Below, piece by piece: positions 6,667-24,862 of a DNA stretch of 64,000 nucleotides (position 1 is the first letter of the stretch; the number at the start of each line of letters is the position of its first letter). The notes under the pieces were generated by a model. That model saw only the letters and a list, made by a program, of their open reading frames with translations. It made no database searches and was not told the DNA's origin. The DNA is from Eubacteriales bacterium (lineage in GTDB: Bacteria; Bacillota; Clostridia; Oscillospirales; CAG-272). The position numbers and the translations under genes are program-made. Location: assembly GCA_045585895.1 (NCBI GenBank), contig JAZMZI010000084.1, forward strand, positions 33,196-97,195, given 5' to 3'.

Positions 6667-8900
6667 CCCTCCGAATTGATATCGATGTTTTTAATCGATT
6701 GTCCTTCTTTTTTGATCTTTCTTTCATATAAAATGAAAGGTATGATGCCCGAGATCATTCCGCAGAATGCGGATACCGCCGCGCAAACGACTATTACCCA
6801 GGACGGAACAAAGCTTTCAAAGGAAACGCTGAGCCCGCCGATGCTGAGCTTGGGCAGATACACCGACATCAGCCTGTACAGTATGTAGCAAGCTATACGG
6901 CTGAATGCGTAATTCAAAATAAATCCTATGATAAATATCAATACTCCCGACACCAAATGAATACCTAATATCTTTTTCATTCCGATGCCGATATATCCAA
7001 GGGTTCTGAACTCGGTCTCTCTCTTTTTAAAGAACATTACCTGAGAAAAGATCCATATAACGGGACATATAACTAATATTAAGAATGAAAGAACTGTAAT
7101 AAGTCTCGGAAGTTGATTCCTATAATCTACAAAGGAATAAACGGCTTCGTCGGTATACTTACATTCCCACAAATCGTACCCGCTCATAAACTGTTCGGTT
7201 GAATTTTTTAATCTGCCGACTGTTTCAAGGTCAGTTCCGTTTTTCAAATATACGCTTATATTCGATATTGCCCTTTTATCCTTCGTCAAAAGCGAATAGT
7301 TGTTTTCATTAACTCCGACGATAATGCTGTCGGTCGCATCCTTATCGTGAATTACCGCTCCTACGGTGTATTCTCTGTATTCGAAACCGAAATTATATAG
7401 CTGCTGTCTCAGGCTTTCAAGTCTGTCTGCGGTTCCGGGGATCGGAACGCTGCTTATTTTCTCCGCGATCAGAATTTTGTCGCCGGGAGCAAAATCGAAG
7501 CTCTTTACTCCGTACATTCCCTCGCTTAAGACCACGTATTGGTCGGACTCGGTAAGATTTGAGGAGTTGAGACCGTCAAGATATTCTACATCATAGTTTT
7601 TTTCGTAATTTTTTAGAGTCATCTCGTCAAGACAGACGTATCTTGAATAGTTGGTGGCTCTCGTATAGCCCTCGCTTCTCTTTTGCGTGGAATTGACCGA
7701 ATAATCGTTTCCGCTCAGATTATTTTCGTTTTTAATTAGCAGATGGTCGTAAAACACGTTCATATTACGGCTCTGTTCAAACACGATACTGTCAACCGAA
7801 TCAAGAGAATTAAAATGATCGATTATCTCTACAGCCTCGTCTAAAGCGCGCTCTCTTTCATCTTCCGAATATGCGCCGCCCGCAAATTTGACGGAATATT
7901 CCTCCTTTGGGGCTTCGTTTTCAGCCTTGACCATATTAGCCCAATATATCATAGTGACGAATATGACCGAAAAAGCAACGGCACCCGAGATCAATCTTAC
8001 TATATACTTTCTGAATCTCCAAACCGAGTAAAGCTCATAATGCAAGGGGATCTTTTTTGAAAATATATAAAAGGACCTTCTCGGCGAAGTTACGAAATTG
8101 GAATTATCCGAGGTGGAAATAAGCGATACGGGTGAACTGAACAAAAAGCTGCCCATTGACCCACCTGCGGCGATCGCAACCGTGACGTAGGAAAGGATCA
8201 CGTACAGAAGTACGGCTTCGGTACGTATTATCGGTTGTATTCCTACGTCAAGATAAACCGTTAAGTTCAGAATATACGAGATAATAAAAGATGGGAACAA
8301 GGTAATGGTACATATCGTAAACAGCTCACGGGACGCAAAGCTCGCAAGAGTTTTGCGGTCGGCGCCAAAGGTAACGTATATTCCGTACCGAAACTTATAA
8401 TGATTGGTGCGGATCGAATGAATTACCGATATTATCAGCGTGGCAATTCCAAAAATCACTATACCCATAAGTATCATCGTCAGGATCGTTTCGCCTCTTA
8501 CCGAATAATGATAGTTATAGTACGGAGTTACGTAATATTCGGCTTGATTTCTTGAAAGCACCTTGGCTTGAAACTCGTCAAGCTTTCCGTTTTGCACCGA
8601 AACGCCTATCTTACCGTCGACCATACCACAATCCGCAACCAAAGCTCCGTTTGCCTTGCATATACCGTAAAGATCGTTCATCGGAGTTTTTGCATCGGTT
8701 ATATAAACGTCATAACCGTACGCATCTTTAAAAAGCGCATCGTTTGAAAGAGTGTTAGTGTAAGCAGACATAGTCCAGACACCTAAAAGGAGCTGGACTA
8801 CAATTATAGCAATATAAATGGCTGTGAATTCCTTAAAATTCAGCAAGACGCTTTTAACAGACGTTTTAAATTCCGTCAGAAATAACTTCAGCTTTTCCAA
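6663..8900 (-). CDS. FtsX-like ABC transporter permease
   Basis: Two clusters of TM helices with large extracytoplasmic loops; KRETEFRTLGYIG motif; overlaps ATPase gene by 4 nt. Confidence 0.75.
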   Translation of the reverse strand: MEKLKLFLTEFKTSVKSVLLNFKEFTAIYIAIIVVQLLLGVWTMSAYTNTLSNDALFKDAYGYDVYITDAKTPMNDLYGICKANGALVADCGMVDGKIGVSVQNGKLDEFQAKVLSRNQAEYYVTPYYNYHYSVRGETILTMILMGIVIFGIATLIISVIHSIRTNHYKFRYGIYVTFGADRKTLASFASRELFTICTITLFPSFIISYILNLTVYLDVGIQPIIRTEAVLLYVILSYVTVAIAAGGSMGSFLFSSPVSLISTSDNSNFVTSPRRSFYIFSKKIPLHYELYSVWRFRKYIVRLISGAVAFSVIFVTMIYWANMVKAENEAPKEEYSVKFAGGAYSEDERERALDEAVEIIDHFNSLDSVDSIVFEQSRNMNVFYDHLLIKNENNLSGNDYSVNSTQKRSEGYTRATNYSRYVCLDEMTLKNYEKNYDVEYLDGLNSSNLTESDQYVVLSEGMYGVKSFDFAPGDKILIAEKISSVPIPGTADRLESLRQQLYNFGFEYREYTVGAVIHDKDATDSIIVGVNENNYSLLTKDKRAISNISVYLKNGTDLETVGRLKNSTEQFMSGYDLWECKYTDEAVYSFVDYRNQLPRLITVLSFLILVICPVIWIFSQVMFFKKRETEFRTLGYIGIGMKKILGIHLVSGVLIFIIGFILNYAFSRIACYILYRLMSVYLPKLSIGGLSVSFESFVPSWVIVVCAAVSAFCGMISGIIPFILYERKIKKEGQSIKNIDINSEG

Positions 8901-8916
8901 AACCTATTCTCCAAGT

Positions 8917-9513
8917 TTAAGCGTAGCTTCTTTGAATTGCAAGTACTCTGCCGAGGATAAGCACCTCGTCGACTATTATGGGTTCCATCGTGCTGTTTTC
9001 GGGCTGAAGGCGGTAATGACCGTTTTCTCTGAAAAATCTCTTTACTGTCGCCTCATTTTCGATAAGGGCTACCACGATCTCTCCGTTTTCGGCATAGCAG
9101 GTCTTTTCTGCGATTATCATATCACCGTCGAGGATTCCAACTTCGATCATACTCTCGCCCTTGACCTTAAGAGCAAACATTTCCTCGCCGCCGACACGTC
9201 CCACGTAACCTATATATCCCTCAAAATTCTCTTCCGCAAGAATAGGCTGACCCGCAGTTACGGTTCCGAGAACGGGAACGGCGGTAACGGAAGGCATATC
9301 GTCGTTTGCAATACGGATAGCACGGCTCTTTCCGTCCTCTTTGCGTATATATCCAAGCATATCAAGTCTGTTGAGATACATATGCACCGTTGACGTACTC
9401 TTATAGCCGAGATCGTTCATAATATCTCTGACGCTTGGAGCAAAACCTTTATCTCTTACAGATCTTACTATGTAATCGTATACTTTTTTTTCCTTTGGCT
9501 TGAGCTTTTCCAT
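8917..9513 (-). CDS. lexA: SOS repressor LexA
   Basis: PSVRDI HTH, VTAGQP cleavage site, GESM catalytic Ser, ATVKR catalytic Lys. Confidence 0.95.
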   Translation of the reverse strand: MEKLKPKEKKVYDYIVRSVRDKGFAPSVRDIMNDLGYKSTSTVHMYLNRLDMLGYIRKEDGKSRAIRIANDDMPSVTAVPVLGTVTAGQPILAEENFEGYIGYVGRVGGEEMFALKVKGESMIEVGILDGDMIIAEKTCYAENGEIVVALIENEATVKRFFRENGHYRLQPENSTMEPIIVDEVLILGRVLAIQRSYA

Positions 9514-9807
9514 AAATTTACCTCACTTACGGGATCTTAATTTTAGTACAAATGTATTGTATCATATTTTATCAAATCATAATGGAACGTTTAAAGAACA
9601 ATTTGTGAATTTTTTTGCTCCGCTTATTCGGTTTATATTTGAATTTGCCTTATGATAAAAGAAAATATTAACAATTTGAAACTTTTGAAAATATGTATTG
9701 CAAACTTGCAAAAAATATAGTAAAATGTATAATGGCGAACGAAGGGAATCTTTAAGTTCGACAAAATTCGTAATTAAAATTTCAATAATAATATAAGGAG
9801 AAAAAAC

Positions 9808-11601
9808 ATGACACCTACCAACAACAAGTTCGTTCTTGATTGGATCAACGACATGGCTGCGATGACCTGCCCCGATAAGATCGTTTGGATCGACGGCAGC
9901 GAGGAACAGGCAGAGGCGCTCAGAGCCGAGGCTTGCTCTACCGGCGAAATGATCAAGCTCAATCAGGAAAAGCTTCCCGGCTGTTACCTCCATCGCACCG
10001 CCGTTAACGACGTTGCTAGAGTTGAGGGCAGAACCTTCATCTGCACTTCCAAGAAGGAGGATGCAGGTAACATCAACAACTGGATGGATCCCACCGAATG
10101 CAAGGAAAAGCTCTCCAAGCTCTACGCAGGAAGCATGAAGGGTCGTACCATGTACGTTATTCCCTATTCCATGAGCGTAGTCGGCTCTCCCTTCGCTAAG
10201 TACGGTATCGAGCTTACCGACTCTATCTACGTCGTTCTTAATATGCTTATTATGACCCGCGTAGGTTACGACGTTCTTGAGGCTCTCGGCAACAGCGCAG
10301 ACTACATCAAAGGTCTTCACGCTCGCGCTGATATCGACGAGGAGAACAGATACATCGTTCACTTCCCCGAGGAAAACACCATCTGGAGCGTTAACTCCGG
10401 TTACGGCGGAAACGTTCTTCTCGGTAAGAAGTGCTTCGCGCTCAGAATCGCATCCTTCCTCGGACGTAAAGAGGGCTGGATGGCTGAGCATATGCTCATC
10501 CTCGGTGTTGAGTATCCCGACGGCGAGACCAAGTACGTTTGCGCCGCATTCCCCTCCGCTTGCGGTAAGACCAACCTCGCTATGCTTATTCCCCCCGAGT
10601 TCTACTCCAAGCAGGGCTACAAGGTATGGTGCGTAGGTGACGATATCGCTTGGCTCCGTGTTGGAGAGGACGGCAGACTTTGGGCGGTTAACCCCGAGAA
10701 CGGATTCTTCGGTGTTGCTCCCGGTACTAACCTTAACTCCAACCCCAACGCTCTCTACACCACTATGAAGGACACCATCTTCACCAACGTCGTTCACAAC
10801 ACCGCTGAGAACACCGTTTGGTGGGAAGGTCTTGATAAGAATCCTCCTAAGCCCGGCAACGCTATCGACTGGAAGGGCAATCCTTGGGATTGCACCAAGT
10901 TCGACAAGAAGGATAAGTCCACCTGCGGCGCTCATCCCAACTCCCGTTTCACCGCAAAGGCTATCAACTGTCCTTGCATCTCCAAGGAGTTTGCTAATCC
11001 CGCAGGCGTTCCCATCTCCGCTATCGTATTCGGCGGCAGACGCGCGAAGACCGCTCCTCTGGTTTACCAGTCCACCTCTTGGCAGAACGGCGCATTCGTT
11101 GGTTCTATTATGGCAAGTGAGACAACCGCTGCTGCGGCAGGTGCTGTCGGCGTAGTTCGTCGCGATCCTATGGCTATGAGACCCTTCGTAGGCTACGATA
11201 TGGGTGACTACTGGGCACATTGGCTCAAGATGGGTACCACCATTCCCCACGCTCCCAAGATATTCCACGTTAACTGGTTCCGCACAGACGACGAAGGCAA
11301 CTTCATCTGGCCCGGCTTCGGTGACAACATGAGAGTTCTTATGTGGATCCTCGCTCGCTGCGAAGGTAAGGTAGATGCAGACATTACTCCTATCGGATAC
11401 GTTCCCAAGGCTGAGGATATCTGCATTGAAGGTCTCGCTGACGTTACTCTCGACACCATCAAGGAGCTTCTTACCGTTGATAAGGCTTCTTGGCTTGAGG
11501 ACGTTGAGAACATCAAGGCATTCTACGCTCAGGTTGGTGACAGAGTTCCCCAGACCATGTACGATGAACTTGCAGCTCTTGAAGCAAGACTTAAAGCATA
11601 A
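9808..11601 (+). CDS. pckG: Phosphoenolpyruvate carboxykinase (GTP)
   Basis: DVARVE, GYGGNVLLGKKCFALR, FPSACGKTNLAM, GDDIAW, NPENGFFG, HPNSRF; strongly biased codons. Confidence 0.96.
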   Translation: MTPTNNKFVLDWINDMAAMTCPDKIVWIDGSEEQAEALRAEACSTGEMIKLNQEKLPGCYLHRTAVNDVARVEGRTFICTSKKEDAGNINNWMDPTECKEKLSKLYAGSMKGRTMYVIPYSMSVVGSPFAKYGIELTDSIYVVLNMLIMTRVGYDVLEALGNSADYIKGLHARADIDEENRYIVHFPEENTIWSVNSGYGGNVLLGKKCFALRIASFLGRKEGWMAEHMLILGVEYPDGETKYVCAAFPSACGKTNLAMLIPPEFYSKQGYKVWCVGDDIAWLRVGEDGRLWAVNPENGFFGVAPGTNLNSNPNALYTTMKDTIFTNVVHNTAENTVWWEGLDKNPPKPGNAIDWKGNPWDCTKFDKKDKSTCGAHPNSRFTAKAINCPCISKEFANPAGVPISAIVFGGRRAKTAPLVYQSTSWQNGAFVGSIMASETTAAAAGAVGVVRRDPMAMRPFVGYDMGDYWAHWLKMGTTIPHAPKIFHVNWFRTDDEGNFIWPGFGDNMRVLMWILARCEGKVDADITPIGYVPKAEDICIEGLADVTLDTIKELLTVDKASWLEDVENIKAFYAQVGDRVPQTMYDELAALEARLKA

Positions 11602-12227: not shown

Positions 12228-15200
12228 TTATTTTTTTACGGTAAACCTTATCTCTCGGAGACCGTCCTCGATCAGATTGTATTCATCGACCCAATCGTCG
12301 CCCGTAGTTGTAAAGCTTCCGTGTCCGCAACGGTGGACGACGCACTCCTTGGTATGGAGAGGACCAAAGGTATTCTTTCTCGTACCGAGAACCGTAACTT
12401 CAAGATCGCGTTTTGCCTTCACTGCCTCGGTAACCTCTATCTCGTAAGGCTCCCATGCTATAATTTCATCAAGTTCCGCTCCGTCGCAAACTCTTACTGC
12501 CGCGCCGAAGAATTTTGCGGAAAGATAAAGTCTTTCACCCTCTTCAATGTCAGCATATTCCTTATACTTTTCGTAAGGCAACTTGAAGGTAACGTTACCA
12601 GAATAGAATGGCAAGCCTTGCGCGGCATAATTCGTCATTGAGAGCTTTTGAGGCATCTTGCCGCCTACAGACGAGCATTTAAGTCCTGCGCTAACGGCAA
12701 AATCACCTATCAGATATACCGATTCAAGATGCGTTGACCATTTATAGAGTGTTTTGACGGTAATCTCGTTTTTGCCAAGCCTCAGAGCTTCCTTGGGTAT
12801 GGGCAGCTTTTTGAAGGCAATATCTATCCAGAAGTCCTTGCCGTCGGGACATTCCAGCTTGACGCCGTTTATATAATACTCCTTAAACTCGGGGCGCTCA
12901 CCGACGAGGATAATATCTCCCTCGGGCATATTCTCGACGTTGAATTCAAACTTAATCTCAATATTCTTGAACTCGGTATCCATACCGTATTTTTTGATAT
13001 ACCAAGGCTGAAGCATCGCCTCACAACGGTGCATTATCTTGAGTTCGCTTCTGATTTCTCCGTCAATTTTCAGAATTTCTTTGGTTTCATCGCTCCACTC
13101 GCCGTCCTCCCAGCGCCATTTTGCAAAGTCAAGAACGCAGACGTTTGGCTCGTGTAAGGTAACGTCAAGAGTCTCTTCCACAGAAAGCGAGGAAATCTCA
13201 TCAAAGCAAGGCTCGTCATCAACACTTTCGTCTATTTCTGACTTTAACACGAAGCACTTGGTCTCACCTGCCAAAAGGTCGGCATAAATTTCGGTATATC
13301 CGTCGTTAAAGGCAACTCCGTTATTAACGTTGTATCTCTCGCCCGATTCAAAATCCCAGAGCTCAACGAAACGGTGATTTTCGGTCTTAAATTTGATCTT
13401 AATGCCTTTTTTAGCGTTTTCAAGGTCGGAATTGAGCACCACTAAGGCATCACCGCCGTCAAAGTCATGCTTTGCCTGAACTAAAACCTCCGCAATCGGG
13501 ATGTTTTCGCCGTTAACTACCGAAACGTATTCGTCAGAACAAGATCTGATAGCTTTAACAAGTGCACTTTCTTCATAAGGGATGTAGGTCGCGCCATTTG
13601 AGAGGACGAACTCGCCCTCATACGGGATAGCGTCGATATACTTAGGCTCGTCGCCCATAATTATAACCTTACCGCCCATATCCATAAATTCTCGGAGCAT
13701 CTTTACGGTAGTGGGGCGAATAGTTGTCATATTCGAGACCACTACCACGCGATAAGACATTTTACCGATATTAAGAAGCGCATTTCCCTTTTCGTCGCGT
13801 CCGAGGGAATAATGGCGAGCCATTATTACTTCCTCGCCCCAGTCGAAATCGATATGATTGTTAAGCAGCATAAAGAAGGTCTCACGATAGCGTTTCTCTA
13901 TTTCCGCGCATTCGGGAGAGGCTATCTCCTGCTTATTCCAGTCGTGCCAGCCTATATGAAGTTGACAGAACATAGACTCGATGGGATTCAACACCAAAGT
14001 ATCGCAGGCGGGTCTGCCGTGGAGATTATAGACGTTGAATCGGTTGAAATAGTCCTCTACCTTGGAATAATGCTTATACCAGGGCGACTGATGTAATATT
14101 GACGCGGGGTAATCTCGCTTTGCCTGACCTTCCATGGTGTACCACGAAAGGTGCTGACAGCGGAAGTTGACGCCGAAAAGCGCCTGCCAATCGCCCACCG
14201 TCTTATGGGAACGGAAATTGAACTGCCAGCCTGTACAACCGTAAAGCTCGGAGAGCATTCTTTCTTTGCCAAGCTGACGCACCACGCTTGAAAGCTGCTT
14301 CGGCACCCAATATTTGCGCTCGGTTTCGGTCAGCTCGTCCATTCCGGGCCAATCCATATACTCGTAGAGGCGCATTATCGAACCCATACAAATAATCTGC
14401 GCTTTGAGGGATTCTTCTTCAAGACCGTGTCCCGTAAAGATCATATTATTTTCGTGGCACCAATTCTGTATCTGTCCCGCGTAATTCTCGCAGAAAAGGT
14501 CGCAGGTAAGGTTGAAATAGTGGAGCTTTATGGGGGCTACCTTTTCACCGTTAAACCAATAGAAAAGCTCGGGAATATGCTCGTGGAAGCTGTAGCCGTA
14601 TCTCGAAACGAACTGCTCCTCAAGCTCCTCCGTCCAGCAGGTAGAGGCAAATCTCTCTCTCTCGTTAGAGAAATCAAAGTGGATAGAGTCAAAGCGGCGA
14701 GGCTCGTCGGTAAAAATCCCCTTGATCGACCTGCCGAGTCTGTCTCCGCATTTCTCTCTGTATCTTTCGTGGGTATCCTCGATAAATTTTGCCACCGCCT
14801 CGCGGCTTATGGTATCAAGAGGCGAACCGTTATTGAAATTTGGATGATCGGGATATGGACCTTTATTATAAAAGAGCACCTTCCAATCACCGCTTTTGTC
14901 GGAATATTTCTTTTCTTCCTCACTTATAACGGCATCGATATCGTCATTTTCAAAAATACGTCTGTATCCCCACAGATTATTACCATCGATCTTTGCAACG
15001 AAAGCAATAAAAATCCCCTGCGACCAAGAAAAATATTTTGGCCACATCTCGTGGTTGGTTATTGACTTACAACGGTATTTGGGATCCTTGGTTGTAATTC
15101 CTCCCGAGCTTCCCGAGGGGTATCTGTCCTCGTCGTATAGCCATGCCTCGATTCCAAGCTTTTCACTTTCGTCGGCTACGGCGTTTATATGGTCAAACCA

Positions 15201-15395
15201 CTCCTCGCCGAGATACTCTGTTATAAGTCCTGCTCTTGAATGCATAAAATGGCCGCCAAAGCCCATTTCTTTCATAACCGAGGTCTGCCTTATAAGCTCT
15301 TCTCTCTCAAGCTCTCCATTCCAAGACCAGAATGGCTTTCCCTTATAATATACTGTAGGATTCTCAAACAAATCAGTTAATTTATCGTGAGTCAT
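12228..15395 (-). CDS. Large glycoside hydrolase, GH106 (alpha-L-rhamnosidase)-like
   Basis: PFWSWNG, GFGGHFMHSRAGL, LYDEDRYPSG, IFTDEP, LSELYG, KRDYP motifs; no signal peptide; start after GGAGG. Confidence 0.75.
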   Translation of the reverse strand: MTHDKLTDLFENPTVYYKGKPFWSWNGELEREELIRQTSVMKEMGFGGHFMHSRAGLITEYLGEEWFDHINAVADESEKLGIEAWLYDEDRYPSGSSGGITTKDPKYRCKSITNHEMWPKYFSWSQGIFIAFVAKIDGNNLWGYRRIFENDDIDAVISEEEKKYSDKSGDWKVLFYNKGPYPDHPNFNNGSPLDTISREAVAKFIEDTHERYREKCGDRLGRSIKGIFTDEPRRFDSIHFDFSNERERFASTCWTEELEEQFVSRYGYSFHEHIPELFYWFNGEKVAPIKLHYFNLTCDLFCENYAGQIQNWCHENNMIFTGHGLEEESLKAQIICMGSIMRLYEYMDWPGMDELTETERKYWVPKQLSSVVRQLGKERMLSELYGCTGWQFNFRSHKTVGDWQALFGVNFRCQHLSWYTMEGQAKRDYPASILHQSPWYKHYSKVEDYFNRFNVYNLHGRPACDTLVLNPIESMFCQLHIGWHDWNKQEIASPECAEIEKRYRETFFMLLNNHIDFDWGEEVIMARHYSLGRDEKGNALLNIGKMSYRVVVVSNMTTIRPTTVKMLREFMDMGGKVIIMGDEPKYIDAIPYEGEFVLSNGATYIPYEESALVKAIRSCSDEYVSVVNGENIPIAEVLVQAKHDFDGGDALVVLNSDLENAKKGIKIKFKTENHRFVELWDFESGERYNVNNGVAFNDGYTEIYADLLAGETKCFVLKSEIDESVDDEPCFDEISSLSVEETLDVTLHEPNVCVLDFAKWRWEDGEWSDETKEILKIDGEIRSELKIMHRCEAMLQPWYIKKYGMDTEFKNIEIKFEFNVENMPEGDIILVGERPEFKEYYINGVKLECPDGKDFWIDIAFKKLPIPKEALRLGKNEITVKTLYKWSTHLESVYLIGDFAVSAGLKCSSVGGKMPQKLSMTNYAAQGLPFYSGNVTFKLPYEKYKEYADIEEGERLYLSAKFFGAAVRVCDGAELDEIIAWEPYEIEVTEAVKAKRDLEVTVLGTRKNTFGPLHTKECVVHRCGHGSFTTTGDDWVDEYNLIEDGLREIRFTVKK

Positions 15396-15430
15396 AAAAA
15401 CCTCCGAATCAAACAAGTTTTGCTATTTGA

Positions 15431-17510: not shown

Positions 17511-17810
17511 TCATTTGAACCTTTTGCCTTTTTTACCGTTTTTCCCGTTGCACGTGTAGTTTGTCAGATCCGATTGGGGTATTTTCACAAGGATCGCGTC
17601 TTCTCCGATACATTCAATATTGCACCACGGTATAGTATACTCCTCGCATTTTGACCAAAAAGGCAATCCTCCTCCGTCACGCACAGTAAACGAGACTATC
17701 CTTCCAGAGTCAAGATCGATCTCAAAATCACATGGATATCCGAGCTTTTCTCCTCCGCAAAGATTGATGACCTCGAGCTCACGAAGGCAAGCAGTGCTTA
17801 TTCTTTTCAT
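17511..17810 (-). CDS. YlmC/YmxH family PRC-barrel sporulation protein
   Basis: LRELEVINL.G.KLG...DFEID, IPWCNIECIGEDAILV; GGAGGTG RBS. Confidence 0.88.
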   Translation of the reverse strand: MKRISTACLRELEVINLCGGEKLGYPCDFEIDLDSGRIVSFTVRDGGGLPFWSKCEEYTIPWCNIECIGEDAILVKIPQSDLTNYTCNGKNGKKGKRFK

Positions 17811-17902
17811 AAATAACACCTCCATAGTTCAAAAGGCTGCCACCTACGGCGACAGCCCTTTATAATTAATTATCATTACAAATATATGCTATGTGCGCGG
17901 TA

Positions 17903-20647
17903 TTATTCCCGCCTTTTTCCGATAAGATAAGCTACGAGAAGCGCAATTCCGTAAACAGCGAGATATCCCGGTATAATCAAATACTCAAACAAACCGAATC
18001 CGTTCTTATAAAGCTCCGTAGCAAATGGCAGCTGCGTAGAAAGTGCGCATATTCCCAAAAGTATCGCGTAGGCAATTACTACCTTCAACCAACAATAGCT
18101 TCTTCCCTCACCCTTTTTCGTATGCTTAAGATTGATTATAAGAACTTCTGTGCACATGGTAAGAAGCAGACATATAAATATCGGCAGCGTATACGCGGGC
18201 GTTTCGCCGAAAACTCCGCAAACGTCAAGTATCTTAACGGCAACAGTGACGACAAAGGCTACCGAAACTCTCGATATCAAGGAAGGAATATGTTTGATCA
18301 AAAGTCTCTTGGGATATTCCGTATAGTTCCTCTTTATCGAGATCACGTCGAACCTCTGCTCCGAATCGGAGAACACCGTAGCAGAAAGAAGAGCGAATAC
18401 CGCAGCCAAAGAAACGGTCTGAACGGGATCCAACAAGATATTACCGGTAATAACGCTCATGGCGCAGAAAGTCAAAAGATTGGCGGAAAGGAGCGCAAAA
18501 AGCAGCACTGATTGAGCCAAGGATACACAAGCTCCCCTTGACATTCTTATTGCTTTGAACAACGAATAGATTCCGCCGCCGCTTTCGTTAGCTCTCTTTA
18601 CGGTAACCTTGGAAAGAAGTCTCGTCTGCTGAGAGGCTCTCAGATTGGTATCTCTGCCTTCGGCATGCATTCTTTCATATACCGCTTCGCGATGTTTTTC
18701 GGTTGAGTAACGGATCGTATCACAGGTAACCACAACGTCGGTCTTTGCCATGATCTCATTATATTCATTTGCTACTCCGTAAGCTGCTATACTGCTTCCT
18801 CGCTCACGCATTTTTGCAATCAGCGCAGAATACTCTTCCGTACTGAAGCCCACATAAGCCGAATATGAGCCAATATCGTCGGTAATTTTTTTGCCGAGCT
18901 TACGAAATTCGGACGCATAGGCGATTTCTTTTTCAAAAACCGAGCTTAAACTCCGAGATTTGACGATTTTAAAACATTCTCTCTCCTCGCAAGGCAAAAA
19001 AACCGTAGTATTTATGCCAAAGCTCTTCATTTCATTAACGACGTTATTAATTTCGGTGTCGGCGGGCTGGTAAATAGCCAAAGCACCTTCAAAAATGCAT
19101 TTTCCTTCGCTCTCGGAGATACAGAGCACGGCTTGTGAACCGTTTTCTTCGGTCTCTTTGAGATATGCATTGATAACGGAGATACTGTGCTCATCCATGT
19201 CAACCGCGTCTTGTCCTATCCTGATCGAACGGCATATACTCAAAGCCTTTTTATCAAAGGTCATAGTAACGCGGTAGATCGAACTGTCAGTCTCTGCGCA
19301 GGCGTATCCGTAGCCGGTCTTTATATCGTTGGCATAGTAAAGTGATTTCGTTGCAAGCGCCGCGCCGCTGAAATCAAATCCGCAAGTTCGCAGATGGATA
19401 TAGAGAGCTTCGGTTATTCCGTCAAGATTGAAGTTGGAATCAACGCCGCCGTCACGCAACGCTCTTACATAAGTATTTATAAATGAAAGCAATCTTTCCG
19501 ATTCGGGCGTGTCAACGGCCAGGCTTTCGACTCGGTTGCACGATACGAGAGCAGAACCGATTTTAAATACGCCCTCGTAAAGACCCGCGGTACCGAAGAG
19601 AACAACGTCGGTGACCTCCGTAAGTCTGTCAAAAGCCTTGACGGTTCTTACTGCCGCCGAATTGTCCTTCTTTCTCTTTGCGCTCTTGTTGATCGACAGT
19701 CTCGTTATGTAGGACGCAAATATCTCTTTTCCGGCAAAGGAAAGCATTTCTCCCGTGACGAGAAACGCCGAGGACAAAAGCATCATAAAGTACCATATAA
19801 ACTCCTCTTTGCCGCGGAAAGTCAGAAGCCCCAGGAGGGATAAAAGGAGAAGCGTAGCCGCGCATATAAAAGCAATTTTGCTTATCGTGCCCCGAAGACT
19901 TTTCACTGCTCTGCTTTCGGATTCAACGCCGCCGAGCGCTCCGTCGGCAATGTAATCGCTTAGATATACCGATTCTCCAACTTCGACCACTAAAGCGACC
20001 GCACTTCCCTTTACGACTGCACTTCCGCTATACAGCATATTTTCAGCATCGGGAGCTTGGACACTATCGTCCTGATAGGATATATCGGCGCGCTTCATCA
20101 CTCTGCGACGGCTGATTCCGCCGTCTGCTCGTCCGAAAAGCTCGTCAACGAAAAGCGCGTCTGACTTTACTATCCTTGCGTCGCACGGCAAAAGGTCACC
20201 TTCTCCAAGAAGTATAACGTCGCCAACGACAAGGTTCCTACCATCGGTATAAAACGTATTTCCGCCGCGTTTTACCCTGACCATCGGCGCCGCGTACTCA
20301 CGCATACCGTTGAGTCTTCGTTCGGCACGCAACGAAACTATGCCGCCAAATACTGCCGCGGCGAGAGTTGACAGAAAAACCAATCCACCAAGATATTCTC
20401 TGCCGAAAATTGTGGCAAGGAGGGATATCAGAAGCAATAAAACCGTAAGCGGAGAACACACGAAAGACAGCAAAGGATGCCAAAACGAGCGTCTTTGAGG
20501 CACGAAAAGAGATTTGACTTTGCCGTGCGTGCGCTTTTTGTATTTTTCAAGTCTCTCTCGCGCTTCTCTTGCCGAGAGGCCCTCGGCAAGATCGGTATTA
20601 AGCTTCTTTTCTAAAATATTAATTTCGGGAATATGCCATTTTTCCAT
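17903..20647 (-). CDS. P2-type cation ATPase homologue with degenerate catalytic motifs
   Basis: GLSAREARERL, VRVKRGG, LVVGDVILL.EGDLLPCDARI, ENMLYSGS.V..G, about 10 TM segments; lacks DKTGT, TGES, PEGL and GDGxND. Confidence 0.8.
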   Translation of the reverse strand: MEKWHIPEINILEKKLNTDLAEGLSAREARERLEKYKKRTHGKVKSLFVPQRRSFWHPLLSFVCSPLTVLLLLISLLATIFGREYLGGLVFLSTLAAAVFGGIVSLRAERRLNGMREYAAPMVRVKRGGNTFYTDGRNLVVGDVILLGEGDLLPCDARIVKSDALFVDELFGRADGGISRRRVMKRADISYQDDSVQAPDAENMLYSGSAVVKGSAVALVVEVGESVYLSDYIADGALGGVESESRAVKSLRGTISKIAFICAATLLLLSLLGLLTFRGKEEFIWYFMMLLSSAFLVTGEMLSFAGKEIFASYITRLSINKSAKRKKDNSAAVRTVKAFDRLTEVTDVVLFGTAGLYEGVFKIGSALVSCNRVESLAVDTPESERLLSFINTYVRALRDGGVDSNFNLDGITEALYIHLRTCGFDFSGAALATKSLYYANDIKTGYGYACAETDSSIYRVTMTFDKKALSICRSIRIGQDAVDMDEHSISVINAYLKETEENGSQAVLCISESEGKCIFEGALAIYQPADTEINNVVNEMKSFGINTTVFLPCEERECFKIVKSRSLSSVFEKEIAYASEFRKLGKKITDDIGSYSAYVGFSTEEYSALIAKMRERGSSIAAYGVANEYNEIMAKTDVVVTCDTIRYSTEKHREAVYERMHAEGRDTNLRASQQTRLLSKVTVKRANESGGGIYSLFKAIRMSRGACVSLAQSVLLFALLSANLLTFCAMSVITGNILLDPVQTVSLAAVFALLSATVFSDSEQRFDVISIKRNYTEYPKRLLIKHIPSLISRVSVAFVVTVAVKILDVCGVFGETPAYTLPIFICLLLTMCTEVLIINLKHTKKGEGRSYCWLKVVIAYAILLGICALSTQLPFATELYKNGFGLFEYLIIPGYLAVYGIALLVAYLIGKRRE

Positions 20648-20673: not shown

Positions 20674-22998
20674 TTAAAAACACTTGACCTTAATTTCACC
20701 GTCCGATACGGAAAGTTTTGCGCTCTTATAGGTGAAATTATAATCGGAAATGATCTCTTCCGCAAGCTTGTCTTCAATATTTTTCTGGATATATCGTCTC
20801 ATGTTTCGAGCACCGTATTTTTCAGAGAACGAACCGTTTGCAACGATTCTTGCAACTTCTTCGTCGTATTCAAGATCGATTCCCTTTTCCGAAAGGACGC
20901 TCTTAAGCTCGTTAAGCATGATATGAGCTATTTTTTCAAAGTCGTTTACGTCAAGACTGCGGAAGGTTATTATTTCGTCAACGCGGTTAATAAATTCGGG
21001 GCGAAGGAATGCGGAAAGCGCCTTTTCGGTGCGTTCCTCGTTACTCTTTGCGGAGTCTGCCGCAAATCCGACTACGCCGCTCCTGTTTTCGGAGCCTGCG
21101 TTGGTAGTCATAACGATGACCGTATTCTCGAAGTTTACGGTCTTTCCGTGAGCGTCGGTTATCCTGCCGTCGTCAAGGATCTGAAGCAAAATATTGAGCA
21201 CGTCGGGGTGCGCCTTCTCAATCTCATCGAAAAGAACGACCGAATAGGGTCTGCGACGTATCTTTTCGGTGAGCTGACCCGCATCGTCGTAACCGACGTA
21301 TCCCGGAGGTGAGCCGATAATTCTGGAGACCGAATGCTTCTCCATAAACTCGGACATATCAAGTCTTATGAGAGTTTCGGGAGAATCAAAAAGGTCTGCG
21401 GCAAGAGTTTTTACAAGCTCTGTCTTACCAACGCCCGTAGGGCCAGCAAAGATAAAGGAAACAGGCTTACGCTTGTAGGATATACCCGCACGGTTGCGCT
21501 TCACGGCTCTTGAAACCGCGTCTACGGCAACGTCCTGTCCTACGAGCCTCTTTTTGAGTCTTTCGGAAAGACCGTCTATTCTTGAATACTCGTTCGCAGT
21601 AATATTGGTTGCGGGAATTCCCGTCCAAAGCTCTATGACGTCTGCAAGATGTTCCTCGGTGAGCACTACCTTCTCACATTCTCCGACTATCTCGTCAAGT
21701 CTTTGAGACAGTCTCATTTCCTCGGAGCGGATGCGTGCGATAGTCTCGTACTTCTTCTGCATTTCCTTATCGTCGGTAGTAGCGCTTGCCTCGCAGGCGT
21801 CTCTTTCGGTTTTGAGGTTCAGAAGCTTATCGTGTATCTCAAGCGATTCATTAAGCTCTGCCGACGAAAGCGACAGCTTTGATGCGGCTTCGTCGAGAAG
21901 GTCGATAGCCTTATCGGGCAGATATCTGTCGGTAATATATCTTTCCGAAAGAGTTACCGCGCGCGAAAGTATCCTTTCGGGGATTCTGATCTTGTGGAAA
22001 TCCTCGTAATAATGACTTATGCCGCGAAGCATTTCAACCGCCTCACCGACAGACGGCTCGTTGACTGTAACGGGCTGAAATCTTCTTTCAAGCGCAGAGT
22101 CTTTTTCAATATATTTTCTGTATTCGTTAAGAGTAGTGGCGCCGATTATGCGAACCTCTCCTCTTGAAAGCGCGGGCTTGAGGATGTTAGCGGCGTTAAC
22201 ACTACCCTCCGCATCACCTGTTCCGACGATATTGTGAACCTCGTCAATAACGAGTATCGCTCTGCCGTGTTCCTTGACATCCGAAAGCAATCCGAGAATT
22301 CTTGATTCGAACTGACCTCTGAACTGCGTTCCCGCAACCAAAGCCGTCAGATCCACAAGAAAGATCTCTTTATCTCGAAGCTTATAAGGAACGTTGCCGT
22401 CTGCAATTCTTATTGCAAGTCCCTCTGCGATAGCGGTTTTACCGACACCCGGCTCACCGATAAGGCAAGGATTGTTCTTCTGACGGCGGCAGAGAGTCTG
22501 AATAACTCTGTCCGTTTCACGCTCTCGCCCAACTATCCTGTCAAGCTTTCCGTCTCTCGCGCTCTGAGTGAGGTTTTTGCAATAGGTAGTGAGAAATTTA
22601 TATTGCTTTCCCTGCTTTCCACCGTTTTTGGGAGGCTCTTTTTTTCCATCCTTAGGGGTGACGGGTACGATATTCCCTCCGTTTTCCTTTCCCTGCATCA
22701 TCTGATTCGCCATATCCGCGAATCCGCTGTCCTTGAAAAGCTTGGGAAGGTCAATGGCGGGCGCTCCCCCGTCCTCGTCTCCTTGCGGGAGCATTTCGGC
22801 AAGCTCGTCCTCCATATTCTCCATCTGATCGGGAGAAATACCCATTTTATTATATATATCGCCCATCATACTGTCGATAGGCAACCCCATATCCTTTGCG
22901 CACTTGATGCAAAGTCCTTGGGATGATTTTTCACCGTTTTCTACCTTCGTAACGAAGATAACCGCCACCCTTTTGTGGCAATTAGAACACATTACCAT
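20674..22998 (-). CDS. Clp/Hsp100 ATPase (ClpC/ClpE-like) with N-terminal CxxC-CxxC zinc finger
   Basis: Two AAA modules ([16 protein letters not shown]), [24 protein letters not shown]; N-terminal CSNC...CIKC. Confidence 0.92.
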
Positions 22999-23006
22999 TT
23001 TGAAAT

Positions 23007-23534
23007 TCACCTTCTGATACTAAACGATTTTTCGATAAGATCAAAAAAATTCAGATCAATTATCATTTTAAAGACCGAGGAATCACTGTATATCAGCAAT
23101 ATCTCGGGTTTTCTTATTAATTCCGACGTAAGCTCAAGTCCACTGAAAAGCAGATTTGAAATAAGAGTTGTCACTGACAGACCGATCAAAAATCCAACCG
23201 TAAGCCCGCCTATTTTGTCTAACCAAGAAATTATCGAAATATTCAACCCTCTCATTCTGCCGAAAAGCAGAGATGAGAATATAAAAGCAATTAAAAACAA
23301 AAGAACGTAGGATATGATCAACGATAATACCGTGCCAAATGTGCCGTCTATGCGTTTTGATATAAAATCATTTACAAAGTAAACGGAAAGAATTTCTCCG
23401 AATAACGCTGCAAACGAAAGTGATAAAAGCACCTTCAAAACGCCGCAAGCAATTCCGAAAATTCCTATTTTAAAGAATTTGACCGTAAAAAATGCAATTA
23501 CAGCAACCAATATCACGTCGACCAGCATATTCAT
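23007..23534 (-). CDS. CvpA-family membrane protein
   Basis: VDVILV start, 4 TM helices, WLDKIGG..VG motif. Confidence 0.7.
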   Translation of the reverse strand: MNMLVDVILVAVIAFFTVKFFKIGIFGIACGVLKVLLSLSFAALFGEILSVYFVNDFISKRIDGTFGTVLSLIISYVLLFLIAFIFSSLLFGRMRGLNISIISWLDKIGGLTVGFLIGLSVTTLISNLLFSGLELTSELIRKPEILLIYSDSSVFKMIIDLNFFDLIEKSFSIRR

Positions 23535-23563: not shown

Positions 23564-24862
23564 TTAATTAAAGGATATGTAATATGCCGATGTATTCGTA
23601 CAAACCGTTACGGTTCCGTCGTCAAAAATCACGAGCCTTGCGTTTTCAGAACCGTGCGCGGTGCTTACAGACGTTCCGAAAAGCGTATCTATACGTCTGA
23701 CCTCCTTATCGGTGAGAACGTAAACGTAGCTTTCACGAATGGCAATATCTGCTACTCCGCCGTCAAGCTTATGCTCGCTTATCTTATTTCCGTTTTCTCC
23801 GAAAACAATCAGAGAAAATGCCGAATCGATGCCGTCGTCCTTAAACAATACCGCGAATCCGCCGTCACAAACCGAGATATCGGCAACCTTCTTTGAATAC
23901 TCTTCTCTGTTCTTTTCTCTGCAATCGAGATCGAACACAGCGGAATATTCCGAGCTTATAAGCGCTATTCTGTCGTTTGAAATAAAGGATGCCGTATACG
24001 GCAGTATACCCTTTAAAGAGACCGAGGAACGCGTCGACTTCTTTCCCCGTTCAACGACCGTGAGAGTTGCCATACCGTCACCGTCCTTGGCGTCAAGTGA
24101 AAGCACGGCTATCTTTTTTCCGTCAGGAGATATATTGGCGGAAATTACGTGATCGTTCCTCGAATATTCGGATTCAAGAACGTATTTCTCGTTATACACG
24201 CGAACGACCGAACCGTAGTTTTCCGACTTCGTAACGATACAGAAGCTTCCGTCATCCGCCATATCAGCGGAGCTTATGGGATAGTCGAGCTCTTCTGAAC
24301 GCACCGAAATAAACGAATTATAAACCTTAAAGGTCTTTCTTCCCTGATCGTAGATCAATAAAGAAGTGTCCGAAGAACATATTCTGGGGTTTGTAAACTC
24401 CGAACCCTCGGACATAGTAACTCGTCCCGTCGAGGCAAAGAGCTTTATCTCACTGTCGCTCGCAACCGCAAGCCCGTTTTTAAACACGTCAAAATCCTGA
24501 TTACTGAACGGACGCGAATAGTTCAAGCTTGACGGTCTGTTCTCAACGAAGCTGTTTATATATGCAATATCCTTAAACATATAATATACGTTATCGTAGG
24601 ATATTATGCTGCCGCCGAAAAGAATGAGCGCGGCAAGGAGCAGGCAAAGCAACGAAAGACAGGCAAGTCTTGCCATGCCGAATATAAAGGATATCCGAGC
24701 TTCCTTTGGGCTGTCGGCTCCTTCAAATCCCGCGTAAGCCTTTTCATGCTCAACGATTCTTTGCGGAAGGCGCAATTCTTTTATTTTTTCAAACGTATTA
24801 CGAACAAAAGATATAACTTTACCGAGAAACGAAATTTCACGTTCATTATCGTTATTCTTCAA
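23564..24862 (-). CDS. DUF5711-family membrane-anchored beta-propeller-like protein
   Basis: Single N-terminal TM then repeated beta-rich units (FTNP, IYDQGR, ISPDGKKIAV); adjacent to CvpA. Confidence 0.6.
   Translation of the reverse strand: MKNNDNEREISFLGKVISFVRNTFEKIKELRLPQRIVEHEKAYAGFEGADSPKEARISFIFGMARLACLSLLCLLLAALILFGGSIISYDNVYYMFKDIAYINSFVENRPSSLNYSRPFSNQDFDVFKNGLAVASDSEIKLFASTGRVTMSEGSEFTNPRICSSDTSLLIYDQGRKTFKVYNSFISVRSEELDYPISSADMADDGSFCIVTKSENYGSVVRVYNEKYVLESEYSRNDHVISANISPDGKKIAVLSLDAKDGDGMATLTVVERGKKSTRSSVSLKGILPYTASFISNDRIALISSEYSAVFDLDCREKNREEYSKKVADISVCDGGFAVLFKDDGIDSAFSLIVFGENGNKISEHKLDGGVADIAIRESYVYVLTDKEVRRIDTLFGTSVSTAHGSENARLVIFDDGTVTVCTNTSAYYISFN

Follow-up and report, generated by a model that had tools for sequence, protein, structure and literature searches.

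Can the body of an ion pump be kept by selection once the chemistry that defines it has gone, and what would it then be kept for? Textbooks define P-type ATPases by their aspartyl-phosphate, and the question is raised by an open reading frame (ORF) of 914 amino acids (aa) on the minus strand of a 64,000-nucleotide (nt) stretch of contig JAZMZI010000084.1 (assembly GCA_045585895.1, an Eubacteriales bacterium), the whole of which is called the window below; the genome comprises 2.40 Mb and is 85% complete. An earlier note on this DNA had described the ORF, without giving its strand, as an uninterrupted P2-type ATPase in which all catalytic motifs are lost, and had proposed that it is a pseudoenzyme kept for a new role. 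We find a full-length P-type ATPase homologue that, judging from its sequence and that of its relatives, is very probably both incapable of the P-type cycle and kept by selection, and whose invariant neighbour is the gene of a ClpE-type unfoldase. We refer to it as the pseudo-pump.

The protein belongs to the P-type ATPase superfamily by homology and by fold. Its reading frame is uninterrupted, and Pfam recognizes on it only E1-E2_ATPase (PF00122, residues 118-290, 52.3 bits versus a cut-off of 28.1) and Cation_ATPase_N; neither the Hydrolase/HAD family (PF00702) nor Cation_ATPase_C was found by Pfam on this ORF. The NCBIfam P-type models match its first 200-570 residues, all far under their cut-offs (TIGR01494, 23.1 bits versus 62.3), and a single-sequence search of the PDB aligns residues 22-244 alone to Listeria LMCA1 (E 4e-17). 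We recovered 76 homologues, of which 74 cover at least 97% of the query and two are shorter (733 and 841 aa), so that a chance ORF can be dismissed; 75 of them share 36-72% identity with the query and one 27%, and all carry PF00122 alone or with PF00690. The pump alignments used were A1 (75 close sequences), A2 (13 genuine pumps), A3 (31 sequences including other genera) and A5 (34 sequences, down to 15% identity). When the A1 profile was compared with LMCA1 by hmmsearch, the two matched in one stretch (22-642 versus 19-639, E 1.1e-40), and hhalign of A1 against A2 gave a probability of 100 over 829 columns (E 6.4e-48; 2e-48 in a local repeat). AlphaFold2 on A1 predicts ten long membrane helices together with the actuator (A), phosphorylation (P) and nucleotide-binding (N) domains, with a predicted local distance difference test score (pLDDT) of 89.9 and a predicted template modelling score (pTM) of 0.87. 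This model retrieves SPCA1 (7yai, E 1.2e-31), Na,K-ATPase, MgtA, LMCA1 and SERCA as full-length Foldseek matches, among 269 matches at E<=0.001 and with template modelling (TM) scores of up to 0.67 (SERCA 4h1w). The P2-type architecture that the earlier note had read by eye, from an N-terminal GLS..EA..RL, an actuator GD..P.D.RI and about ten transmembrane (TM) helices, is therefore real: both motifs are present, the second as GDLLPCDARIV at residues 150-160, and the model has ten helices.

The residues that make such a protein a pump have been replaced. Two profile methods, hmmsearch and hhalign, agree that F351-G-T-A-G-L-Y357 aligns to DKTGTLT, with F351 at the place of the phosphorylated Asp, exactly where the earlier note had put FGTAGLY, and that G624-V-A-N-E-Y629 aligns to GDGVND, again as it had proposed for GDGxND. 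According to hhalign, TGES corresponds to R173-A-D-(G)-G177, inside the ELFGRADG in which it had been located, TGD to L551-P-C553, the P-domain Lys to Y606 and the KGAPE region to M-T-F-D. In the membrane, at positions that we take to equate with the cation-site residues of SERCA (the TM4 PEGL Glu, the TM5 Asn and Glu, the TM6 Asn..Thr-Asp and the TM8 Glu), the TM5 Asn falls in a gap, the TM5 Glu becomes Asn, the TM6 N..TD becomes A..FA, and the TM8 Glu becomes M831, with E834 following one turn later. The register of PEGL depends on the method: its earlier reading as TGEML stands in the hhalign alignment, which gives G299-E-M-L302 and which we favour because the model shows a helix break at 295-298, whereas hmmsearch against LMCA1 (PEAL) gives K307-E-I-F. 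In the favoured register the TM4 Glu (E300) is kept in 56 of the 75 close homologues, with Asp in seven more, and the Pro is lost. The ligand set of the P2A Ca2+-ATPases is thus reduced to this TM4 Glu, the TM5 and TM6 ligands having been replaced, and none of the catalytic features of P-type ATPases, namely the DKTGT Asp, the TGES loop, TGD, the Lys and GDGxND, is found. From the combined loss of the Asp, the rest of DKTGT, TGES, TGD, the Lys, GDGxND, the KGAPE-type contacts and the TM5/TM6 ligands, it follows that the protein should have no P-type reaction cycle; it is predicted to be unable to form an aspartyl-phosphate or to couple ATP to ion transport.

This loss is shared by every relative examined, across many genera, and is not private to the window's genome. 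In A1 the column of the phosphorylated Asp holds Leu (32), Val (21), Phe (19), Ile (2) or Met (1) and never Asp (0/75), which is equally absent from it in A3 (0/31) and A5 (0/34); the column of the TGES Glu is mixed (D29/N15/E10 and others, n=75). In one divergent subgroup (L097, L098, L099, L101, L102, L105, L106) a Pro-Lys-x-Gly vestige stands at the DKTG position, which suggests that the motif was eroded step by step. When 1.84 billion cluster representatives (50% clusters) were searched with the profile, at least 150 clusters scored >=403 bits, nearly all full length; among the matches listed, 142 cluster representatives were new, with DKTG in none, GDGxND in none and TGES in one.

The gene is under purifying selection. 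Its reading frame is intact in all 24 related loci, each from a distinct GTDB species, and dN/dS calculated on these loci by the NG86 method, with the 18 of 300 pairs that have dS<1.5, has a median of 0.10 (0.086-0.123 for the closest pairs). In the same loci the neighbouring genes gave 0.057 (ClpE), 0.064 (PRC), 0.08 (DUF5711), 0.106 (TruA) and 0.137 (Tsf). By region, dN/dS (omega) is 0.23 in the N-terminal tail, 0.14 in TM1-2, 0.084 in the A domain, 0.063 in TM3-4, 0.109 in the P and N domains, 0.099 in TM5-10, and lowest, 0.061, in a family-specific stretch (residues 646-692) that exceeds its counterpart in genuine pumps by about 25 residues. As the values of the A and the P and N domains are low, the "dead" headpiece is also constrained, and the A domain and the 646-692 stretch are the most conserved parts of the protein in A5 (mean column conservation 0.49 and 0.44). 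Homology, loss of essential residues and purifying selection, the marks of a pseudoenzyme, are all observed here. The earlier proposal survived each of the refuting tests that had been named with it: no Asp occupies the phosphorylation site in proper alignments, the relatives lack the motifs too, and dN/dS is below 1, low in each domain and comparable to that of truA. A pseudoenzyme kept by selection is thus supported by the sequence evidence.

One could still suppose a functionless, decaying relic, in keeping with its fast evolution relative to its neighbours, the occasional disrupted copies and the loss of the gene in several genera. The constraint data contradict this: with 24/24 frames intact, omega of about 0.1 in every domain, presence in 36/36 genomes of the genus and a confident fold prediction based on the alignment of the family, a relic is scarcely credible.

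Using the A1 profile at E<=1e-60, we found the gene in all 36 other genomes of the same GTDB genus and in none of 24 genomes from other families. An order-wide draw gave it in one of 301 genomes, the window's own, with a profile that is too narrow for other genera. The A3 profile at E<=1e-95 gave a single-stretch, full-length match in 83 of the 201 genomes and 51 of the 97 genera of the GTDB family, a lower bound, as the genomes of L116 and L114 fell below the cut-off; of these matches 14 were spot-checked, including the lowest-scoring ones (321-329 bits), and DKTG occurs in none. In a class-wide draw of 399 scored genomes, the matches beyond the window's genome cover only positions 1-643, with 236-284 bits for the best stretch, and nine of the eleven class-wide loci inspected (L086-L096) are genuine DKTG pumps. 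Bit score alone was rejected as a family boundary, genuine pumps reaching 436 bits with the A5 profile, which they match in two pieces, broken at the 642-687 stretch; we relied instead on single-stretch full-length coverage, absence of the motifs and checks of the lowest-scoring matches. The nearest ESM Atlas cluster is a "hypothetical protein" with 1543 members from Bacillota, PF00122 being present on 100% and PF00690 on 60% of them and no Hydrolase family being listed. According to their record titles, the carriers are uncultured gut Clostridia ("Oscillospiraceae bacterium", "Eubacteriales bacterium", "Clostridia bacterium"), and their samples come from goat, sheep, roe deer and faecal material.

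In a quick maximum-likelihood tree (57 rows, LG+G4), all 34 pseudo-pumps form one clade (Shimodaira-Hasegawa-like approximate likelihood ratio test, SH-aLRT, 100; stem length 0.81) nested among P2/P3 pumps, from which a single origin of the family is deduced. A long-branch artefact may explain the apparent sister pair, P0081 (labelled Mg-translocating in its source) and P0085 (support 96). Ordinary pumps coexist with the pseudo-pump, since the window's genome also encodes a genuine 920-aa Ca-type pump on contig C17, with TGES, PEGL, SDKTGTLT and TGDGVNDAP, and a CPC-type Cu pump, in addition to two further PF00122 matches.

The invariant neighbour of the pseudo-pump gene is the ClpE-type gene, not the ribosomal genes. 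It lies directly upstream in the window and in 23 of the 23 related loci with upstream DNA (L024 starts too close), in 9/9 divergent members of the genus, in 4/4 homologues from other genera found via the PRC gene, and in 14/14 further genera plus 2/2 more, with a gap of -11 to 91 nt in all such loci. The pair persists from >70% down to <20% pump identity. On the other side, the PRC-rpsB-tsf link is broken in nine of 14 divergent loci, and YlmC-rpsB-tsf follows the pump in the other five (5/14). In two further genera (L114:4403-6877, 824 aa and degenerate; L116:5031-7781, 916 aa) it is not ylmC-rpsB that follows the pump homologue but the gene of an Mrp/ApbC-like P-loop protein, whose N-terminus has a Cys-rich motif.

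A ClpE-type Hsp100 would have two AAA+ modules, an M-domain like that of ClpC, a VGF loop for ClpP and an N-terminal domain unlike Clp_N. The Clp gene of the window encodes two AAA+ modules (AAA, AAA_2) and a VVGFAAD loop; at its N-terminus stands a C4 zinc ribbon (CSNC...CIKC), and Clp_N is absent. The ribbon (residues 3-38) aligns with positions 1-37 of the McsA model NF053706 (E 3.4e-5), and all 59 loci found to contain the gene share this N-terminus, where the ribbon, a conserved helix and an APAIDxPKLF linker motif replace Clp_N. We call the gene ClpE-type on the basis of this N-terminus, ClpE carrying a zinc finger there; with 629 bits against solved ClpC and 620 bits against ClpE (29hb), sequence alone does not separate the two. 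Within the window's genome Clp_N matches are confined to another gene of 812 aa (contig C141, ~7215-9302), of ClpC/ClpB type, and because this canonical Clp_N-bearing gene exists elsewhere, the ClpE-type gene is a specialized extra paralogue. The N-terminal domain of ClpE is described as different from that of ClpC, a VGF motif is noted in ClpE, clpE is said to be typically monocistronic, and ClpE adaptors are not excluded (PMC13125188). The window's ClpE-type gene, unlike such a monocistronic clpE, sits inside a long operon-like row.

This row runs on the minus strand in the order ruvC, methyltransferase, ecfA1, ecfA2, ecfT, truA, DUF5711, cvpA, Clp/Hsp100, pump, ylmC/ymxH, rpsB, tsf, with intergenic gaps of 8-77 nt; a promoter-like site (12/12) precedes ruvC, and the row closes after tsf with a strong terminator (Table 1). 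A promoter and terminator scan of the window found no convincing terminator between the ClpE-type gene and the pump. No match to a CtsR-operator consensus, allowing <=2 mismatches, was found in the whole window, which is uninformative since the organism may lack CtsR. A predicted complex of the full-length pump with residues 1-80 of the ClpE-type protein scored 0.00 twice with an uncertain fold of the partner, and speaks neither for nor against binding. The idea of a defence system was rejected: the pump and the CvpA, DUF5711 and PRC proteins have no match among the PADLOC families, the AAA+ protein has generic AAA+ matches only, and the surroundings are housekeeping genes.

Table 1. Features of the pseudo-pump ORF and its neighbouring genes, in window coordinates.
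Feature	Position	Strand	Evidence
Pseudo-P2-type ATPase ORF (P0001), 914 aa, stop codon included	17903..20647	-	ORF, Pfam, homologues, model, Foldseek
Cation_ATPase_N-like N-terminus, residues 11-77, including GLSAREARERL (23-33)	20417..20617	-	PF00690, 22.9 bits versus cut-off 20.4
Actuator (A) domain, residues 119-240, GD..GDLLPCDAR kept	19928..20293	-	Pfam, alignments
Degenerate TGES site R173-A-D-G-G177	20117..20131	-	hhalign, PDB search, column counts
TM4 PEGL-equivalent G299-E300-M-L302, Pro lost	19742..19753	-	hhalign, column counts
Degenerate phosphorylation motif F351-G-T-A-G-L-Y357 for DKTGTLT	19577..19597	-	hmmsearch, hhalign, column counts
L551-P-C553 at the P-domain TGD position	18989..18997	-	hhalign
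G624-V-A-N-E-Y629 at the GDGxND position	18761..18778	-	hmmsearch, hhalign, column counts
Family-specific stretch, residues 646-692 (YS.EK.RE.VYER...EGRDTN.RASQQTRLLSKV..KR...GGG), last P-domain strand to TM5	18572..18712	-	alignments, omega
TM5-TM10, residues 693-914	17906..18571	-	model, hhalign
ClpE-type double-ring AAA+ unfoldase gene, 26 nt upstream of pump ORF, VGF loop, without Clp_N	20674..22998	-	Pfam, profile matches
C4 zinc-ribbon N-terminus of the ClpE-type protein (CSNC...CIKC)	22879..22998	-	McsA N-terminus model NF053706
CvpA-family membrane protein gene, 8 nt upstream of ClpE-type gene	23007..23534	-	PF02674
DUF5711 gene, conserved upstream of the ClpE-type/pump pair	23564..24862	-	Pfam, related loci
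PRC-barrel YlmC/YmxH-family sporulation protein gene, 77 nt downstream of pump ORF	17511..17825	-	TIGR02888, 60.3 bits versus cut-off 44.2

Beyond this row, the window holds a 563-aa ORF (9577-11268, minus strand) without a Pfam or NCBIfam match, found at 57-73% identity in six related loci (among them L001, L012, L013, L016 and L022), and a 597-aa ORF (9808-11601, plus strand) that overlaps it on the opposite strand. A 1062-aa gene similar to GH106, an alpha-L-rhamnosidase family, lies between tsf and a tadA-like deaminase gene (12228-15416, minus strand); only one of the 24 related loci, L008, has it, and it looks like a variable insertion.

What could a pump without a cycle do next to an unfoldase? 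Because the gene pair persists over so wide a range of pump identity, we place the pseudo-pump in the ClpE pathway and propose that it may be a non-catalytic, membrane-embedded partner in ClpE proteostasis, which would anchor or regulate ClpE(-ClpP) or serve as a platform that presents clients to it, its likely working surfaces being the A domain, which is conserved, and the stretch 646-692 peculiar to the family. Taken as a whole, a non-catalytic pseudo-pump working with ClpE is the best explanation that we can offer, and we give it an even chance. A bolder form of it would make the pseudo-pump the membrane receptor of a two-part machine, in which ClpE(-ClpP) would supply the ATP-driven pulling and the pump body, offering helices, an A-domain lever and a new conserved juxtamembrane stretch, would provide a client site or a lateral gate; such a machine, if true, would extract or degrade membrane proteins in a manner similar to FtsH or the P5A dislocase, but we regard it as unlikely.

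Several observations weigh against the proposed ClpE partnership or against the inactivity on which it builds. The working relationship with ClpE is drawn from gene order alone and, taken by itself, is a tentative and rather doubtful claim, while the inactivity is read from residues alone; in three of the 34 A5 sequences (L080, L103, L107) an Asp stands one residue downstream of the aligned site, without KTGT. The pump diverges fast (33-70% identity between related loci, versus 78-92% for ClpE and 94-97% for RpsB). One copy (G833, C3:195583-198291) has an in-frame TGA and another (G809, C194:5656-8441) is split into two adjacent ORFs, which could be real decay or assembly errors, and L114 carries a degenerate 824-aa relative (198 bits, three pieces). 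Seven loci (L075, L081, L111, L112, L113, L115, L118) have the ClpE-type gene without a pump behind it, from which we conclude that the ClpE-type protein is independent of the pump; these loci fit an accessory factor and equally fit mere co-expression. We sought a pump-specific feature in the N-terminus of the ClpE-type protein and found none, the ribbon, helix and APAIDxPKLF motif being indistinguishable. DUF5711, whose gene is usually just upstream of the ClpE-type gene, was rejected as a co-occurring partner, for it is far commoner than the pump (178/201 versus 83/201 genomes of the GTDB family). Acidic residues in the membrane domain count on the same side: E300 is acidic or polar in 89% of the 75 close and 76% of the 34 wide sequences, and a TM8 Glu, E834, is retained together with E888 in 99% of the genus-level set.

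These last residues would suit a ligand or cation sensor, one of the roles listed in the earlier note, whose membrane domain would bind through E300 (TM4) and E834/E888 (TM8/TM10) and signal to the headpiece independently of ClpE, and the omega of TM3-4, the second-lowest of all regions (0.063), agrees with it. Yet the canonical TM5/TM6 ligands are replaced, the wide alignment shows no conservation of E834 or E888, the neighbours are the only evident partners and no output domain is seen, and a sensor would leave the invariant position behind the ClpE-type gene unexplained; we think it rather improbable. The scaffold of that list might be sought on the other side of the gene, as a sporulation-stage membrane scaffold working with the downstream YlmC/YmxH PRC-barrel protein, which follows the pump in all 24 related loci and in several other genera, in a genome that encodes SpoIVA (709 bits) and Spo0A (265 bits). 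It is precisely this link that breaks in most of the divergent loci (nine of 14) where the ClpE link persists, and the promoter-like site in this region is found not ahead of the pump but in the interval from PRC to rpsB, which leaves the scaffold with little probability. Hardly better placed is a non-canonical transporter or enzyme, that is to say a passive channel or uniporter running along the membrane pathway of the pump, or an ATPase with another nucleophile: the ten TM helices are constrained (omega 0.06-0.14) and some acidic TM residues persist, but all nucleotide and phosphoryl contacts are lost together, no polar residue is kept at the canonical TM5/TM6 positions, and no alternative conserved Asp is seen near the site in the close and wide alignments. 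Pseudoenzymes often regulate active paralogues, and as the same cell has a genuine P2A-type pump and some P-type pumps oligomerize (MgtA dimer entries are among the Foldseek matches), a regulatory pseudo-subunit of that Ca2+-type pump is conceivable; the genuine pump lies on another contig, with no gene linkage to the pseudo-pump, and we consider this very unlikely. Of the roles that had been suggested, sensor, passive channel, membrane scaffold or Clp adaptor, only the Clp link has thus gained support, in the form of gene order, while the conservation of E300 and E834 still leaves room for a sensor.

Placed among known systems, the pseudo-pump has the fold and domain order (N-terminal tail, A, P and N domains, ten TM helices) of the P2A Ca2+-ATPases LMCA1, SERCA and SPCA1 and of the P3B pump MgtA (Foldseek E 1e-31 to 1e-27), and it retains their GLS..EA..RL motif near the N-terminus and the conserved structural residues of their A domain. 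It differs from them in lacking the catalytic motifs and the TM5/TM6 ligands, in its extra stretch of about 25 residues before TM5, in failing all NCBIfam P-type cut-offs, and in forming a clade of its own on a long stem. The closest known case of a P-type body that lacks the Asp is the flippase module of the alveolate P4-ATPase-guanylate cyclase chimeras (P4GC), in which some lineages, e.g., Cryptosporidium, have an altered or no DKTGT Asp and A-domain Glu, and for which the authors discuss a supporting, non-ATPase role (PMC13466520). These chimeras are eukaryotic, of P4 type and fused to a cyclase, with a lineage-specific loss, whereas the pseudo-pump is bacterial, of P2 type and stand-alone, with a family-wide loss. 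Adaptors of ClpC and ClpE (MecA, McsA/McsB, RfaA) offer another comparison, clpC often being co-organized with mcsA/mcsB (PMC13125188): like them, the pseudo-pump is encoded beside a Clp/Hsp100 gene and might direct or localize its product. Known Clp adaptors are small and soluble, whereas the pseudo-pump is a polytopic membrane protein of 914 aa.

Full-text searches, with most subscription journals outside their scope, found no publication on a bacterial non-catalytic P-type ATPase homologue. What appears to be new is that the family is large and arose once, that each of its domains is constrained, and that it is invariably paired with a ClpE-type unfoldase. In their sources, family members are named "cation-transporting P-type ATPase" or "hypothetical protein", and because of such names annotation pipelines likely over-predict cation transport in these gut Clostridia. 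The pairing provides a testable lead to a membrane-linked role of ClpE, whose adaptors and localization are still under question (PMC13125188). A large bacterial family that keeps the pump body without its chemistry would, moreover, constitute a natural experiment on what the P-type fold can do without its cycle.

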